From Octopus vulgaris (lineage: Eukaryota): a stretch of DNA of 64,000 nucleotides. Positions 9,148-48,918 of the stretch are shown here, one piece after another. Positions within the stretch are counted from its first letter, which is position 1; every line of letters begins with the position of its first letter. The stretch covers positions 196,044,001 to 196,108,000 of the forward strand of contig OX597814.1 of NCBI GenBank assembly GCA_951406725.2, in the 5' to 3' direction. Below the pieces are notes generated by a model that did not search any database, was not told the origin of the DNA, and saw only the letters and a list, made by a program, of their open reading frames with translations. A program made the translations under genes and the position numbers.

Positions 9148-9421
9148 GTGAACCAGATAATAACGTTTCGTTAAAAGAGACCGATAGAATAAGTTCTAGA
9201 CTTACAAAGAATAAGTCATGGGGTCGATTTCTTCGACTTAAATCCTTTAAGGCGGTGCTCCAGTGTGGCCGCAGTCAAATGACTGAAACAAGAAAAAGAA
9301 TAAAAAGTATATATATAAATGTATGTATATTTGAAAATATAGAGTTCTACTCGAGGATTTTTCTATTTCTCTTATTACACACACACACACACACACACAA
9401 ATATGTATGTAAATATATATA

Positions 9422-9613
9422 CTTTATTTAAAAGCAGCAAAATTCAACAAAACCTGTTACTCGGAGTTTCACGTCCGACGAACGGGAACGTGAAACTCCG
9501 AGTAACAGGTTTTGTTGAATTTCTGCTGCTTTTAAATAAAGCATATTACTCTACCCCTGGTATTTGAGTACTCTTTTTTCCACCTTGTTTCACATTTATG
9601 TGTTTACTCCGGT
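9422..9613 (+). mobile_element. Short TA-flanked element with 5' fold-back and a hammerhead remnant at the palindrome centre
   Basis: Arms 9422-9474 / 9488-9541; CCGACGA ACG ggaa CGT GAAA CTCcGAG TA at 9475-9504; an inverted relative lies at 11479-11598. Confidence 0.7.
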
Positions 9614-9699
9614 ATATATATATATATATATATTTTTTTTTTTTGTTGTACTTGTTTCAGTCATTTGACTGTGGCCATGCTGGAGCACCGCCTTTAGAG

Positions 9700-9859: not shown

Positions 9860-10001
<142 letters not shown>

Positions 10002-10225
10002 TAATCAATATAGGGTGGCAAAAAAAATTTTGTAGAATTCTTTTGCCACCAGCGGCCTAGTAGGAAAAAATAAAATAGTCATAAACCATTTTTACGTTCA
10101 ACATCACAATCAAGGAACGGCCATAATAGGCCATTCACCCACTAGAAATAACAGCCAAAAGCTTTAACCGCAAAATAATATTAATACCGTAAACCAGGAG
10201 AAAATTGAAAAACTTTTACCCTGTA

Positions 10226-10332
10226 ATTTCTTAGACGATGCACCGTTTCATCTACCGTTTAATGGTAAACTAACCTGATTAAATTAAATCAAGCCAATCC
10301 ACCATAGGCCCTTAGACTCATCAGTAAGAAAT
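10226..10332 (-). ncRNA. Type I hammerhead ribozyme, intact core, long stem II (unit 1)
   Basis: Minus strand: ATTTCTTA CTGATGA GTCTA..long hairpin..TAGAT GAAA CGGTGCATCG TC TAAGAAAT; perfect 8-bp stem I. Confidence 0.9.
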
Positions 10333-10706
10333 AGCCAAATCGGGACAGATATTTTTCACGAGGCATTCCTCTTGCTGCCTCGGCAATATCTGACCTAAAA
10401 TTTTCAAATCGTCGCACTCGCGCCAAATTTATCGGCAGCAAATGAACCACCGATTCCGTTACGGAACTAACCAGAAAATTCATAATTAATCAATATAGGG
10501 TGGCAAAAAAATTTTGTAGAATTCTTTTTGCCACCAGCGGCCTAGTAGGAAAAAATTAAATAGTCATAAACCATTTTTACGTTCAACATCACAATCAAGG
10601 AACGGCCATAATAGGCCATTCACACTAGAAATAACAGCCAAAAGCTTTACTGCAAAATAATATTAATACATAAACCAGGAGAAAATTGAAAAACTTTTAC
10701 CCTGTA

Positions 10707-10812
10707 ATTTCTTAGATGATGCACCGTTTCATCTACCGTTTAATGGTAAACTAACCTGATTAAATTAAATCAGCCAATCCACCATAGGCCCTTAGACTCA
10801 TCAGTAAGAAAT
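10707..10812 (-). ncRNA. Type I hammerhead ribozyme (unit 2)
   Basis: As unit 1, with one substitution in stem III and a 1-nt deletion in stem II; cleavage site 481 nt from that of unit 1. Confidence 0.85.
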
Positions 10813-11240
10813 AGCCAAATCGGGACAGATATTTTTCACGAGGCATTCTCTGCTGCCTCGACAATATCTGACCTAAAATTTTCAAATCGTCGCACTCGCG
10901 CCAAATTTATCGGCAGCAAATGAACCACCGATTCCGTTACGGAACTAACCAGAAAATTCATAATTAATCAATATAGGGTGGCAAAAAAAATTTTGTAGAA
11001 TGGTTTATGACTATTTAATTTTTTCCTACTAGGCCGCTGGTGGCAAAAAGAATTCTACAAAATTTTTTTTTGCCACCCTATATTGATTAATTATGAATTT
11101 TCTGGTTAGTTCCGTAACGGAATCGGTGGTTCATTTGCTGCCGATAAATTTGGCGCGAGTGCGACGATTTGAAAATTTTAGGTCAGATATTGCCGAGGCA
11201 GCAAGAGGAATGCCTCGTGAAAAATATCTGTCCCGATTTG

Positions 11241-11345
11241 GCTATACTGATGAGTCTAAGGGCCTATGGTGGATTGGCTTGATTTAATTTAATCAGGTTA
11301 GTTTACCATTAAACGGTAGATGAAACGGTGCATCGTCTAAGAAAT
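11241..11345 (+). ncRNA. Type I hammerhead ribozyme (inverted unit; stem I 5' strand partly deleted)
   Basis: CTGATGA at 11247-11253, GAAA at 11322-11325, GTC then TAAGAAAT; GCTATTTCTTA is reduced to GCTATA. Confidence 0.75.
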
Positions 11346-11445
11346 TACAGGGTAAAAGTTTTTCAATTTTCTCCTGGTTTACGGTATTAATATTATTTTG
11401 CGGTTAAAGCAGTGGGTGAATGGCCTATTATGGCCGTTCCTGATT

Positions 11446-11481
<36 letters not shown>

Positions 11482-11597
11482 GGAGTAAACACATAAATGT
11501 GAAACAAGGTGGAAAAAAGACTACTCAAATACCAGTGGTAGAGTAATATGCTTTATTTTAAGCAGATTTTGTTGAATTTTCTGCTGCTTAAAATAAA

Positions 11598-11656
<59 letters not shown>

Positions 11657-21531: not shown

Positions 21532-22691
21532 CTATGTTTGTCTTTTGCTTTATGTCTGTACAAGTTGGCTCCAAGTCTCACCCAGAGACCGCAAGAGACA
21601 ACAGGTTGGAAGTTCTGTACCATATATTTGGTTTTTTTTTTTTTTTTTGGTGTTGTACTAGTGAATGTCTAATACATAAAAAAAAAAAATAAATAAAAAA
21701 AAAAGTTTGTTTTAAACCTTGGGATTACATAGAGAGTATTTTGCGTAGGATATGAGCAGTTCCCATGAGCACTATCTTTTGAATTTCTGCCATTTTGGAG
21801 TTTCCTGGTATCTGAGTTAGGTAGCAATCAGTCCCTTTCGCTATCATTCCCAGGGCACCTATGACAACAGGTATTGTTTTAGTCTTCAGGTTCCACATTT
21901 TGCTGATTTCTATTTCAAGATCTTTATATTTGCTCAGTTTTTGGTAGGTCTTGACAGATACGTTTATATCGATTGGGACAGTCATATCAATGAGGAGGCA
22001 TGTTCTTTGTCTGAAGTCTTGCAATATAATGTCTGGCCTATTTGCATCTATCTTCCTGTCAGTTTGAATGGTGAAGTTCCAGAGGAGTGAGATGTGGTAA
22101 TTTTCAAGTACGGGAGGTGGATTGTGTTCCCACCAGTTTTTTTTCATTGGGCAAATCCAGGTTTTTGCAAATTACCCAGTGAATATATTGTGCAGCTCTA
22201 TCATGCCTACTGAGGTACTCTGTAGGCGCTAGAAGACTGCATTTCGAGACAACATGGTCAATGGTTTCATTTTGTTGTCGGCATACACGACATGTTGGGC
22301 TACTGCCGTTCTTTAATATGTTGACCTGGTAGTTTCTTGTTGGTAGGCATTGATCTTGAGCTCCTATGATAAACCCCTCTGTTTCAGATTTTAAGCCAGA
22401 GGCCATTAGCCATTGATGGGTCAGGGCTTTGTCGATATCTGCATTATTCGCTCTCTTTGGGTATTTGCCATAGAGAGGTTTTTCTTGCCATTTATTATTC
22501 AGAATATCTAAGGCCGCAGTTTTGGCACGGGTTTTCATGCGCCTAGCTTTTTCTGTGCTTGTTTCTTGTATATCTATCTCTAATTCCGAAATTGGTTGTA
22601 TTCGGAATTCACTTAGATATTCCTTTGCCTGTTTTGTGACTGAGTATGATGCTTTCTTGTTTTCATGTTTTGAGACAAGTTTTAACATCCA
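21532..22691 (-). mobile_element. 5'-truncated R4/Dong-type non-LTR retrotransposon (CCHC knuckle plus restriction-like endonuclease), one frameshift
   Basis: ORFs 22104-22688 and 21725-22147: ETEGFIIGAQDQ, CRVC..H..C, RHD, NRPDII..LIDMTVP, KLSKYKDL, IPVVIGALG, MGTAHILRKIL; (TAA)n at both ends. Confidence 0.93.
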
Positions 22692-22778
<87 letters not shown>

Positions 22779-23438
22779 GGTGTTGTTTAGTACAGATTCA
22801 GTCTATTAAATTATACTCACAATGTATTAATCAACTGGAGGCTATCGCAATAAACACTCGCAATCGGGTTGGGGATGCGAACTTCTTAAACACTCAACCA
22901 TGCCTGCAACTCTATATGTATATACAAACTAATCAAGCTAATATTGATGAAAAAGAAGAGCTGAGTTGTTTATGTACGATGCCTTCTGATTGTTGAAAAT
23001 AATTTGGAAAAAGATAAAGATGGAAAACTAAAAATACATTTTCAGACACGACAGAAAATATATATAAAAAACAATCGGCAGAATTTGGAAAAGTAAATAG
23101 TTTTTTTTATAATGAAACCACACGATCGCTAGGTGTAAACATAGCAGTACGAGATTATTCATGTCAGGTATACATCAGATATCAGGTAAACATCAAATCA
23201 CCTGATCACACAAGCCAGGTAAGTTAGTTAATTCAATGTAAGGTGAGAGTATCATAGTGTCTGAATATTTACCTTTACAAGTAAGAACGTGTTGGGATTT
23301 AAATACATTACAGAAATGGAAATGGGCAAATATATATATAAAGGGAAATTTTACGAAAAAAACAACAACAAAAGACGAAGACAGGTGGTGTACAAAACAA
23401 ACAGATGTATTAGTATAGCGCTCAGGAATAGAAAAAGT

Positions 23439-24910: not shown

Positions 24911-25680
24911 AGAGGCGGCGAGTTGGCAGAATGGTTAGTACACCGGGCGAAATGCTTAGCGGTATTTCGCCAGTCGCTACGTTCTGAGTTCAAATTCCGC
25001 CGAGGGCGACTTTGCCTTTCATCCTTTCGTGGTCAATAAATTAAGTACCAGTTACGCACTGGAGTCGATGTAATTGGCTTAATCCATTTGTCTGTCCTTG
25101 TTTGTCTCCTCTGTGTTTAGCCCCTTGTGGGTAGTAAAGAAATAGGTATTTCGTCTGCCGTTACGTTCTGAGTTCAAATTCCGCCGAGGGCGACTTTGCC
25201 TTTCATCATTTCGTGGTCGATTAAATAAGTACCAGTTACGCACTGGGGTCGATGTAACTGACTTAATCCGTTTGTCTGTCCTTGTTTGTCTCCTCTGTGT
25301 TTAGCCCCTTGTGGGTAGTAAAGAAATAGGTATTTCGTCTGCCGTTACGTTCTGAGTTCAAATTCCGCCGAGGTCGACTTTGCTTTTCATCCTTTCGGGG
25401 TCGATTAAATAAATACCAGTTACGCACTGGGGTCAATATAATCGACTTAATCCGTTTGTCTGTCCTTGTTTGTCCCCTCTATGTTTAGTCCCTTGTGGGT
25501 AGTAATGAAATAGGTATTTCGCCAGTCGCTACGTTCTGAGTTGAAATTCTGCCAAGGTCGACTTTGCCTTTCATACGTTCGGAGTCGATAAATTAAGTAC
25601 CAGTGAAACACTGAGGTAGATGTAATCGACTAGCCTCTTCCCCCAAAATCTCAGGCCTTGTGCCTCCAGTAGAAAGGATT
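24911..25680 (+). mobile_element. SINE family D with internal 184-bp tandem concatemer
   Basis: One head, then GGTATTTCG.. units starting at 24961, 25145, 25329 and 25513. Confidence 0.9.
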
Positions 25681-29799: not shown

Positions 29800-31133
29800 A
29801 AGTATATAAGAAAAAAACTTTATAGTTTCTTTAAAAGATATGGTTTAAGTATTACTATATATAATGAGAATTTTAATTTTAATTATTTAGATGTTAATTT
29901 TAATCTTATTGCGGGTAAAACACAACCATATCATAAACTTAATGAGAACCTTAAATATATAAATGTTAATAGTAATCACCCACCATCAATTAAAAAATCG
30001 TTGATTAATAATATAAGTAAACGTATATCATTACTTTCTTATGATTTAGAGATTTTTAATAAACATGCTCCTTATTACAATGAGGCCCTTAGAGAGGCAG
30101 GTTATAATAGTAATATTACATTTTTTATTAAAAATAAAGATAAAACTATTAATAATAGAGATAAAAATATTAATAATAATTATAATAATTTTGTTAGTAA
30201 TATTGGTAATAATCTTAGTAATTATAAAAATAAAAATAATATAAATAAAAATAAGAATAAAAATAAAATTAAAAATAATATCGTTAATAATTCTTTAAAT
30301 GTTAATTATAATTTTAAATTTAAATCTAATAATAATAATAATATGATAAACAAATATGATAATAATAATGGTAATTATAATAATGATAGTTTTAATAATA
30401 ATAATAAGAAAAATAAGAATAAAATTTGGTTAATATGGTGCTCAAGTTAAAACGAACATTATTAAAGAGATTTTAGATATTATTGAACTATTTATTCGAG
30501 ATAATCGTAAATATAAAAACATTTTCTCTAGTAATAATTTTGGAGTAGGTTATTCTACCACTAATAGTGTAGGTAACATTATTTCTTCTTTTAACAAATT
30601 TAAACTGAATAATTTTTATAAAAATAAATTATATAATAATACCAATAATAAAAAAGATAAGACACTCATTAACTGTACATGTAGAGATAAAACTAAATGC
30701 AAATTAAATAATAAATGTGATATTTAACGATGTAGTGTATAAATGTATAGTTACATTACATTATGAGAATAATAATAATAATAATAATAATAACTCAAAC
30801 GCAATATATATAGGGTCCACTTCCTGTAAAATAAAATTAAGAATTGCACAGTATATGCATTCATTTAAAAATAAAAACTTAATTAACTCCACTGGACTTA
30901 GCAAGTACATTTGGGGACTTAAATCCCAAAATATTAATTATGATTTATCATGGGAAATAATTAGTAAGGCTAAATCATATAGTATAGGAGGGAATTTTTG
31001 TTATTTATGTTCAAATGAGTTTAAGGAAATTTTATTTTATAAGGATGATAATCTAGTGAATACTTGGGATGAGCGCAAAATAAAATGCAGACACAAGTTA
31101 CTTTACTTATATAATAAGTTCCTTGATAAATAA
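29800..31133 (+). mobile_element. 5'-truncated Penelope-like element: RT C-terminus, Asn-rich linker and GIY-YIG endonuclease (frameshifted)
   Basis: NYLDVNFNL..PYHKLNENLKYINVNSNHPPSIKKSLINNISKRISLLS..APYYNEALREAGY; NCTCRDKTKCKLNNKC; VVYKC..IYIGST..STGLSKYIWGLK..WEII..CYLCSNE..KCRHK; begins right after (TA)n. Confidence 0.93.
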
Positions 31134-38955: not shown

Positions 38956-39803
38956 TTATTCATCAAAGTAAGTACCATTACAATCAGCAAATTTTTGCCA
39001 ATGAGTTATAAATTTGTTTATTCTGGCAATATAAAAAATTTGGAGTACTGGCGCTCACTTTCAGCATCGATTTGATTTTTTAACTCCTTCTCCCGCAGGA
39101 AACCATAAAGGCGCTTGAAAAGTGGTAGTCAGTAGGAGAAAGGTCTAGAGAATAAGCGGGGTGGGGAAGAACTTCGTAGCCAGGTTCCCTCAACTTGTGC
39201 AGCGTCATTAGTGAAACGTGTGGTCGAGCATAGTTATGAAGAATGATTGGCCCTCTTCTGTTGACCAATTTGGGATGGAGGAGTAGTAGTTTTTAGTTTA
39301 ATTTAGCAATATCACGGAAATATGTTTCTATTTCCGGGTTTTAAGAAGTTACAGTGGATTAGTCCGGCAGTACACCACCAAACAGTCTCCATAACCTTTT
39401 TGAAGAACTCGGCTTTATGGGCTTGAAAAGTGGTAGTCAGTAGGAGAAAGGTCTGGAGAATAAGCTGGCTGGGGAAGAACTTCGTAGCCAGGTTCCCTCA
39501 ACTTCTGCAGAGTCATTAGTGAAACGTGTGGTCAAGCATTGTCATGAAGAATGATTGGCCCTCTTCTGTTGACCAGTCTGAGACGGAGGAGTAGTAGATT
39601 TTCGTTTAATTTGGCAATATCACGGCAATATGTCTCTATTTCCGGGTTCTAAGAAGTTATAGTGGATGAATCTAGCAGTACACCACCAAACAGTCTCCAT
39701 AACCTTTTTGAAGAACTCGTGTTTAGGGGCTTGAAAAGTGGTAGTCTAAAGAATAAGGTCTAAAGAATAAGTTGGGTGGGGAAGAACTTCGTAGCCAGGT
39801 TCG
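38956..39803 (-). mobile_element. Decayed mariner fragment with a 308-bp internal tandem repeat
   Basis: NRRGPIILHNYARPHVS..GYEVLPHPAYSLDLSPTDYHF; WQKFADCNGTYFDE*; repeat starts at 39113, 39421 and 39729. Confidence 0.9.
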
Positions 39804-46978: not shown

Positions 46979-47578
46979 GGTGGCGAGCTGGAAGAAGCGC
47001 TTGCACGCCAGGCGAAATACTTAGCGGTATTTCGTCTGTCGCAATGTTCTGAGTTCAAATTCTGCCGAGGTCGACTTTGCCTTTCATCTTTTAAGGGTCG
47101 ATTAAATAAGTACCAGTTACGCACTGGGGTCGATATAATCGACTTAATCCGTCTGTCTGTCCTTGTTTGTCTCCTCTGTGTTTAGCTCCTTGTGGGTAGT
47201 AAAGAAATAGGTATTTCGTCTGCCGCTACGTTCTGAGTTCAAATTCCGCCGAGCTTGATTTAGCCTTTCATCCTTTCGGGATCGATTAAATAAGTACCAG
47301 TTACGCACTGGGGTCGATATAATCGACTTAATCCGTCTGTCTGTCCTTGTTTATCTCCTCTGTGTTTAGCTCCTTGTGGGTAGTACAGAAATAGGTATTT
47401 CGTCTGCCGTTACGTACTGAGTTCAAATTCCGCCGAGGTCGACTTTGCCTTTCATCCTTTCGGGGTCGATTAAATAAGTACCAGTTACACACTGGGGTCG
47501 ATATAATCGACTTAATCCGTTTGTCTGTCCTTGTTTGTCCCCTCTATGTTTAGCCCCTTGTGGGCAATGAAGAAATAA
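46979..47578 (+). mobile_element. SINE family D, 184-bp concatemer (3 units)
   Basis: Units start at 47026, 47210 and 47394. Confidence 0.9.
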
Positions 47579-48352
47579 GAATTTTCTATGGATGGTTACA
47601 CGCCTCACTCAACTTTAACGACGTGCGCCAATGTTAGAAATTAACATAGATTTATATCAGAGTAAAGACCTGCTAAATAACAGTGTATCGAAATATAGTG
47701 ATGTAGCTCTAATTACTTTAAAAGTCTACAAACTTTGAATCGTGAATCTTTAAGATACCAATTGTCTCAATGCTAGACATTAGATACATTACGTCTGACA
47801 AGTGATCTACAAGTGTCCAAGTTCTAGAGACCGAAGGCTAGCTGTCAGCATTGATGTTAGAAAATACATAATACGCTAATGAATGCATATAAATCTCCTT
47901 CTCAATATGGTAGCCGTCAGCAAACATCGTTTTCGGTTTACATTTGTTATTTGCTGTTTTACTTCTTTTTTTTTTTATTAGCTGTTACTTTAAATAGTTC
48001 TTGCATCAGACTTTATTGATGACATTTTGGCAAGTTTTGCGCGACATATAGCCTGTAATATTGACGCTAGCGGTTATTGAAAGCTAAATAAAAATGAAAA
48101 GCAAAAATTGGAAAAATAACAATACGTGTTCATTTATATGCAATAGAATCTCTGTCAGAGAAAAAAAAGCTCACTGGTAAAAGTATCTGTGAAAGTAGTG
48201 GCCGAGGGAAACACTTTAATATATGTAATTGTAGACCAGGAAATGAACTGATCCTGTTTCTGGGGGAATAATGGCGTGTCACTTGACATCTTTTCGTATC
48301 ACATTAGTTACGAAAATACAAATAAAGCGTGGGTTATAAATGTATAAATATA

Positions 48353-48918
48353 TATTTCTTTACTACCCACAAGGGGCTAAACACAGAGAACACAAACAAG
48401 GGCAGACAAACGGATTAAGTCGATTATATCGACCCCAGTGCGTAACTGGTACTTATTTAATCGACCCCGAAAGGATGAAAAGCAAAGTCAACCTCGGCGG
48501 AATTTGAACTCAGAACGTAGCGGCAGACGAAATACCTATTTCTTTAATACCCACAAGGGGCTAAACACAGAGAAGACAAACAAGGACAGACAAACGGATT
48601 ACGTCGATTATATCGACCCCGAAAGGATGAAAAGCAAAGTCAACCTCGGCGGAATTTGAACTCAGAACGTAGCGACTGGCGTAATGCCTATTTCTTTACT
48701 GCCCACAAGGGGCTAAACACAGAGAGGACAAACAAGGACAGACAAGCGGATTAAATCGATTATATCGACCCCAGTGCGTAACTGGTACTTATTTAATCGA
48801 CCCCGAAAGGATGAAAGGCAAAGTCGACCTCGGCGGAATTTGAACTCACAACGTAACGGCGTACGAAATATGACTACGCATATCACCCGACGTGCTAACG
48901 TTTCTGCCAGCTCGCGCC
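48353..48918 (-). mobile_element. SINE family D concatemer (3 units; middle unit has a 32-bp deletion)
   Basis: TATTTCTTTA.. at 48353, 48537 and 48689. Confidence 0.9.

Follow-up and report, generated by a model that had tools for sequence, protein, structure and literature searches.

Architecture of the locus

The window, i.e. the whole 64-kb stretch of DNA that was analysed, harbors a head-to-head, two-armed insertion in (TA)n, which is oriented with the fixed terminus E2 to the left and the fixed terminus E1 to the right (Table 1). Its two full direct units of 485 and 478 nt, already recognized in an earlier reading made from the letters of this stretch (the sequence-only reading), are 97% identical, and the insertion in (TA)n stated there is borne out by TA tracts on both sides. 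The third, partial unit was described as continuing the direct tandem. Only 45 nt do so; the segment from 10999 to 11450 is inverted and carries its hammerhead on the plus strand. Monomer positions are given on the hammerhead strand, window positions 10587 to 10103 corresponding to 1-485 and the cut lying at 354/355.

Table 1. Features of the insertion, in window positions. Entries without strand are left empty in that column.
Feature	Position	Strand	Remarks
(TA)n target, left	9863..10003		
Left arm	10002..11009	- (RNA sense = minus strand)	order: 45-nt partial, unit 2, unit 1; 3' end is E2 at 10002, 5' end truncated at ~11009
Unit 1	10002..10486	-	485 nt
"Tail"	10002..10102	-	~101-106 nt between E1 and E2, at this end only
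Most conserved block of the family	10113..10137 (monomer 451-475)	-	0.21% variation; small hairpin just upstream of E1
Hammerhead 1	10226..10332	-	type I, intact; predicted cut 10234/10233
Unit 2	10487..10964	-	478 nt; several apparent private 1-2-nt deletions
Hammerhead 2	10707..10812	-	core intact; stem III mismatch C15.2-A16.2 (AUC triplet); predicted cut 10715/10714
Direct partial	10965-11009		45 nt
Head-to-head inversion junction	10999..11009		~11-nt overlap
Right (inverted) arm	10999..11451	+	~452 nt; 3' end is E1
Hammerhead 3	11240..11345	+	5-nt deletion in stem I; site 11337/11338
(TA)n target, right	11449..11479		

Hammerhead 1 consists of an 8-bp stem I, a 5-bp stem II followed by an internal loop and a 19-bp hairpin extension, and a short stem III with a palindromic UGCA loop. 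The two predicted cleavage sites on the minus strand are indeed 481 nt apart. The assignment of an intact type I hammerhead to each full unit holds for the 8-bp stem I and the CUGAUGA and GAAA motifs, but not for stem III of unit 2, where the mismatch likely weakens cleavage. Hammerhead 3, to judge from its deletion, is likely dead. As read from its sequence, the window copy is thus partly damaged, with one of its three hammerheads flawless, one mismatched and one broken. Efficient release of a ~481-nt RNA from this copy, as formerly proposed, is unsupported, since of its hammerheads the upstream one carries a mutation, and RNA reading through the whole locus would be expected to fold back on the inverted arm.

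A small non-coding element in (TA)n flanks the locus on both sides (9417-9633 and 11459-11600). Both copies contain an inverted, palindromic junction and have 108 nt in common at 96% identity, in opposite orientation; the element may be another non-autonomous PLE derivative.

Family size and insertion termini

The host genome (2.8 Gb, 227 contigs) was searched with unit 2, which gave 682 first-look candidates; the best-scoring 40 of the 682 yielded 194 matches. The ends of the copies, abutting (TA)n, fall at two fixed sites, E1 (monomer 485, with short variants) and E2 (101-106), the latter located ~103 nt further along the RNA. Exact E1+(TA) matches numbered 429 and exact E2+(TA) matches 642 on the forward strand alone, with none for the reversed-pattern controls of either; the reverse-strand E2 count of 1968 is inflated by a variable gap in the pattern. 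Extrapolation gives an estimate of ~1300 E2 ends and more than 1000 copies in the genome. One hammerhead variant alone gave 426 matches. The unit sequence was also present in DNA contigs of a second organism and in one unclassified run of a third. A check of copy number, suggested along with the first description, shows a multi-copy, dispersed family, which occurs as dimers to multimers and has no LTR structure. Collapse or duplication during assembly, the caveat attached to the window copy, is unlikely to account for the family, since arrays of up to eight full units are found at many dispersed loci and the unit-unit junction is present in contigs of independent runs.

A total of 120 loci was read (40 taken by best score, 46 from among the 100 listed E1 places and another 34 drawn from those listed for E2), comprising 124 elements, of which 93 are two-armed and head-to-head, 30 one-armed and one complex. 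Among the two-armed elements, E1 is paired with E2 in 86, while E1+E1 and E2+E2 were not found in any; in the other seven, one end is unclassifiable (gap, contig end or rearrangement). Both flanks are (TA) in 105 of the 121 elements located away from edges; 80 of the 120 loci had been picked by TA-containing patterns, and the 40 loci picked by score show (TA) flanks too. The number of full units per element ranges from 0 to 8 and the 5' truncation is variable. An ORF encoding RT and GIY-YIG was found in none of the 124 elements, the arms of which continue into more units or (TA)n.

Inverted arms made of tandem repeats and a TA context would also be compatible with a foldback DNA transposon or MITE, or with a satellite formed by unequal crossing-over, the hammerhead being incidental in either case. 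The two ends differ, however, in 86 of 86 classifiable two-armed elements and are identical in none. Furthermore, 30 elements possess a single arm, inner ends are variably truncated, the arrays are short, dispersed and of fixed phase, and the unit diverges except for its invariant ribozyme core. This explanation is already largely refuted and is considered very improbable.

The monomer and its hammerhead

Monomers of the family are 484-491 nt long; the GC content of the unit is 36.8%. Folded as a circle, the monomer reaches -138.8 kcal/mol compared to -107.6 ± 5.9 kcal/mol for 60 shuffled sequences (z -5.2), in line with the earlier description of the unit as hairpin-rich. The conserved hairpin upstream of E1 (Table 1) is a candidate recognition site for a PLE protein. 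The longest frame in the unit comprises 66 aa. A frame of 64-66 codons after E2 was considered as a gene and rejected, as only 7 of 36 recurrent substitutions are third-position changes; it stops after 26 codons in 26 monomers, and the corresponding place in a sister family (see below) has no ATG.

The match to the Rfam Hammerhead_1 model is below threshold (22 bits, E 0.092, gathering score 34), probably owing to the 68-nt stem II domain. Across 75 loci, an intact hammerhead was found in 191 of 203 full monomers and the core in 201; 46 of the loci contain at least two intact hammerheads. Ten core positions are invariant in all 75 loci, G12 varies in 1.3%, and H17 is exclusively C or A. In 47 distinct sequences, 97.7% of the stem cells are paired. 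Double-sided (compensatory) stem changes were counted in 8 cells, a value reached by 1 of 500 shuffles; the 3 covarying pairs lack significance, as 165 of 500 shuffles attained that number. The structure tested was itself derived from a family member.

Loop III is palindromic in 200 of 200 cases (UGCA in 180, UAUA in 20). As a 12-bp self-duplex, stem III has an energy of -17.5 kcal/mol compared to -0.2 kcal/mol for the hairpin, and because of this far higher stability cleavage is predicted to occur in a dimer. The minimum free energy fold of the isolated hammerhead is an alternative one (-34.7 kcal/mol); the canonical structure, evaluated directly, lies 3.9 kcal/mol higher at -30.8 kcal/mol. 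The hammerhead of each unit is predicted to self-cleave, likely as a dimer.

The unit was present in contigs of 13 runs from four studies that are only guessed to be RNA and in which DNA carry-over is possible. All 30 unit bins were covered in the three guessed-RNA runs compared, in contigs of unreadable strand and without a silent control. The unit was absent from three guessed-RNA runs of a fifth study, and the single run on record as RNA contained 4% of the unit words and was left aside. A monomer junction in such contigs is not diagnostic of a circle, since the same junction occurs in genomic DNA.

Clonality of the arrays and the template

Median divergence inside a locus is 0.21%, be it among units of one arm (221 pairs) or across the two arms (95 pairs), compared to 4.56% for the 20,187 pairs from different loci. 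In 18 of 28 loci no relative is closer than the opposite arm, ties included, so that both arms derive from one template lineage. The predicted cut site is spanned by 154 of 218 arms, which rules out cut linear monomers as the main template. The 5' ends of the arms accumulate at monomer 355-384 (38 of 211, whereas the adjacent bins contain 10 and 15; binomial p 1e-5, with the two arms of one locus not being independent counts). This peak overlaps a hairpin at 364-393, where stalling or self-priming of the RT could have caused it. Together, these data are compatible with cut RNA occurring alongside circles or uncut multimers as templates.

Fold-back and double priming were compared in a mirror test of junction positions, arm lengths and variants. 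The two arms have their junction positions no more than 15 nt apart in 19 of 86 elements (permutation mean 6.8; as high in 0 of 10000 permutations). After subtraction of the tail, the arms are equal in length in 18 elements, the E2 arm is longer in 32 and the E1 arm in 36. Shared variants do not lie at mirror positions between the arms.

Circles are, on balance, the somewhat more probable template. A tenable variant of the preferred explanation (see below), rated by us with reserve and covering all cases in which circles are not the template, is mobilisation by PLEs from uncut linear multimers of homogeneous source arrays or by template jumps between monomers. The element would then be a non-autonomous PLE (a multimerised pLTR), in which the hammerhead serves for RNA processing only. 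Such a variant is in accordance with unprocessed RNA as the dominant substrate of PAc (PMC11167929) and with the non-autonomous PLEs of Chlamys, which insert as multicopy head-to-tail arrays and belong to a clade reported to be devoid of canonical HHRs (PMC8557442). Moreover, in five loci a private substitution occurs in each of the two arms yet is missing from some units, a pattern more readily explained by a multimer template or by gene conversion than by a pure circle. Against it stands the near-clonality of the arrays: of the 138 substitutions within loci, 129 occur in a single unit (L101, which holds two separate elements, was excluded from this count), and in 18 of 48 multi-unit loci a private substitution is common to all units. 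In addition, long arrays are found repeatedly in subfamilies that differ by up to 13%, 5' truncation notwithstanding, so that the number of units presumably has to regrow.

PLEs of the same genome and a sister family

PLE families for comparison were found by protein searches, in a survey of the genome that was not exhaustive. One of them, presumably Neptune-like according to its motifs (a Pfam search gave no match), has intact frames of 1310-1312 aa in copies ~99% identical to each other. In all four of its two-armed loci, the ends occupy two sites, one each, that lie 56 nt from each other, and in a second such PLE family two ends ~55 nt apart were recognized by eye. As the insertions of the repeat share this two-armed, two-ended shape with PLEs of the same genome, copying and insertion by a PLE are likely.

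The Neptune-like copies (loci L163-L168) are very young, two-armed insertions in (TA)n with a 56-nt tail. Their pLTR contains a hammerhead-like motif with the atypical core CUGAUGC; a scan of the PLE loci for hammerheads with strict stems gave no hit, while cores are visible by eye. Another intact PLE family of ~840 aa is Asn-rich and mostly lacks (TA)n flanks, and two 784-aa frames encoding RT and GIY-YIG follow an overlapping upstream frame of ~435 aa, where a frameshift or an intron is possible (set of loci L169-L173 and L176-L182 for both). The window itself contains a broken PLE relic (29800-31133, plus strand) with the C-terminus of the RT, a linker and GIY-YIG, belonging to a sister subfamily of the 840-aa family.

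The relic had been taken to indicate the class of the helper. This is unsupported, the pLTRs of its family being dissimilar to the unit (p 0.58 and 0.87). Overall, six PLE families or subfamilies were compared with the unit by their pLTR/UTR regions, and no significant similarity was found either by permissive blastn or against shuffled sequences (p 0.41-0.87). The conserved hairpin upstream of E1 visibly resembles a hairpin at the ATG of the Neptune-like PLE, which at p 0.41 is a lead only. A helper link deduced from two loci adjoining Neptune-like copies (L081 and L102) was rejected, because ~2-3 such cases are expected by chance according to our own estimate from the candidate count of that PLE.

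The order of elements in the unit, with the hammerhead, E1 131 nt later (~127 nt in the Neptune-like PLE) and then the tail, would also suit a mere terminal repeat (pLTR) of an ORF-bearing PLE, with the loci as its truncated copies, and the elements read are only 124 of an estimated more than 1000. None of these 124 runs into a PLE ORF, however, and the frame after E2 shows no coding selection, has early stops and lacks an ATG in the sister family. We regard this origin as improbable.

The sister repeat is 491-492 nt long and 64.6% identical to the unit over 500 columns (E 1e-41), with 972 candidates in the genome. Its ends are homologous to E1 and E2. Of 19 loci read, 10 are classifiable two-armed, eight one-armed and one is cut by a gap; E1 and E2 are paired in all 10 of the former (by eye). 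The hammerhead has the same core and, by eye, different but complementary stems. Sister copies were located at L156:45-385 and in L189-L208. Fragments 70-85% similar to both repeat families (L190:92-201, L057:6595-6682 and L099:4912-4950) suggest further related repeats.

Interpretation and comparison with known elements

By its sequence, the family is one of young, dispersed, non-coding tandem repeats. It is quite probably a non-LTR retrozyme that works like a non-autonomous PLE and is integrated in trans by a PLE protein with RT and GIY-YIG. The retrozyme or PLE-derivative interpretation put forward by the sequence-only reading is supported, and more strongly than that reading itself could do, by the dispersed family, the conserved and covarying hammerhead, the lack of an ORF and the PLE-type footprint. 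The direct-tandem anatomy, the efficient 481-nt release and the relic as a pointer to the helper are not supported.

In the proposed mechanism, arrays would be transcribed from the hammerhead strand and the transcripts would self-cleave to linear monomers, some of which would be ligated to circles as in the retrozymes of mussel and axolotl. A PLE protein, probably as a dimer, would nick both strands of a (TA)n target, and would build two arms from one template lineage, one with an E2 end and one with an E1 end; this would involve either priming twice, or priming once followed by fold-back and resolution at E1. The RT would round the circle or follow an uncut multimer; between 0 and 8 full units would result, and synthesis would often stop near the 5' end made by the ribozyme. 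Finally, the two truncated 5' ends would be joined, often at microhomologies or palindromes. Counted against this explanation are the alternative minimum free energy fold and the non-significant number of covarying pairs, the lack of a helper match among the six PLE families or subfamilies, the failure of 8 of 9 Xenopus dimers to be cleaved in vitro (bioRxiv 10.64898/2026.07.22.740005) and the dispensability of HHR cleavage for PLE insertion in vitro (PMC11167929).

The signature published for PLEs comprises an inverted, 5'-truncated copy, a tail at one end and a preference for (TA)n (PMC8557442, PMC3846280); the tail lies between two internal sites at which the RT starts, with cleavage and extension of both strands (PMC11167929). 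EN+ PLEs (Neptune, Hydra, Naiad, Penelope/Poseidon; PMC8557442, PMC3846280, PMC11167929) have in common with the family described here partial tandems, an inverted 5'-truncated copy, the tail at one end, (TA)n targets and a type I hammerhead upstream of the 3' termini. Unlike them, the family has no ORF and no detectable homology to the PLE families compared, and its tail is longer (~103 nt, compared to 30-40 nt in published EN+ PLEs and 56 nt in the local Neptune-like family). Non-autonomous PLEs of Chlamys such as MRC1 (PMC8557442) are likewise non-coding, multicopy head-to-tail and PLE-dependent, but as a rule have 3' sequence in common with an autonomous family, and their clade is the one without canonical hammerheads.

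With the metazoan non-LTR retrozymes of coral, Mytilus and axolotl (PMC7229834), the family shares non-coding tandem repeats with a type I hammerhead per unit, a GC content below 45%, a structured monomer, a short stem III with palindromic loop and the presence of PLEs in the genome. It differs in its 68-nt stem II domain, and its circles are predicted ones. The monomer of 484-491 nt is longer than the 170-400 nt given in PMC7229834; the large size pointed out earlier is not exceptional, as animal retrozymes range from 51 to 972 bp (bioRxiv 10.64898/2026.07.22.740005). Inverted two-armed insertions, paired E1/E2 termini and (TA)n targets are not mentioned in the passages of PMC7229834 compared. 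The words "inverted" and "orientation" occur 0 times in its main text, and its supplement may list inverted copies or cephalopod repeats. Judged by titles and the openings of abstracts, with Repbase and Dfam outside the scope, no paper was found on a cephalopod retrozyme or on paired termini in retrozymes; "ribozyme" occurs 0 times in the available part of an octopus repeat annotation (PMC13282606).

PLEs have been named a strong candidate for mobilising animal retrozymes (PMC7229834). A 2026 preprint bases its case on co-occurrence and pLTR phylogeny, with the mechanism said to remain to be elucidated (bioRxiv 10.64898/2026.07.22.740005). The element class is known; here, the insertions themselves bear the PLE signature, in a clean and countable form (86:0:0) to which an intact PLE of this genome provides the counterpart. 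Their value lies in this integration footprint on a retrozyme, and the strict pairing of E1 and E2 constrains models of PLE integration. Given the young, intact PLE ORFs and the existing in vitro PLE assay, the identity of the helper and the choice between circle and multimer become accessible to direct experiments.

More tentatively, circular ribozyme RNA may be the direct template of a PLE dimer that always resolves its ends as E1 and E2, the retrozyme being a long-evolved, helper-dependent RNA replicon. If so, the loci would be genomic footprints linking animal retrozyme circles to PLE enzymes, the PLE "tail" would reflect an obligatory asymmetric pairing instead of an optional extra, and no homology to the helper would be left in a retrozyme lineage that comprises two families of 65% identity and possibly others.

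Other repeats in the window

Elsewhere in the window, fragments of a non-LTR retrotransposon ORF are located at 21725-22802 on the minus strand, with a zf-RVT match below the cut-off. Other tandem repeats were found at 24961-25631, 47026-47584, 48460-48772 and 39109-39802, with units of 184, 152 and 308 nt.
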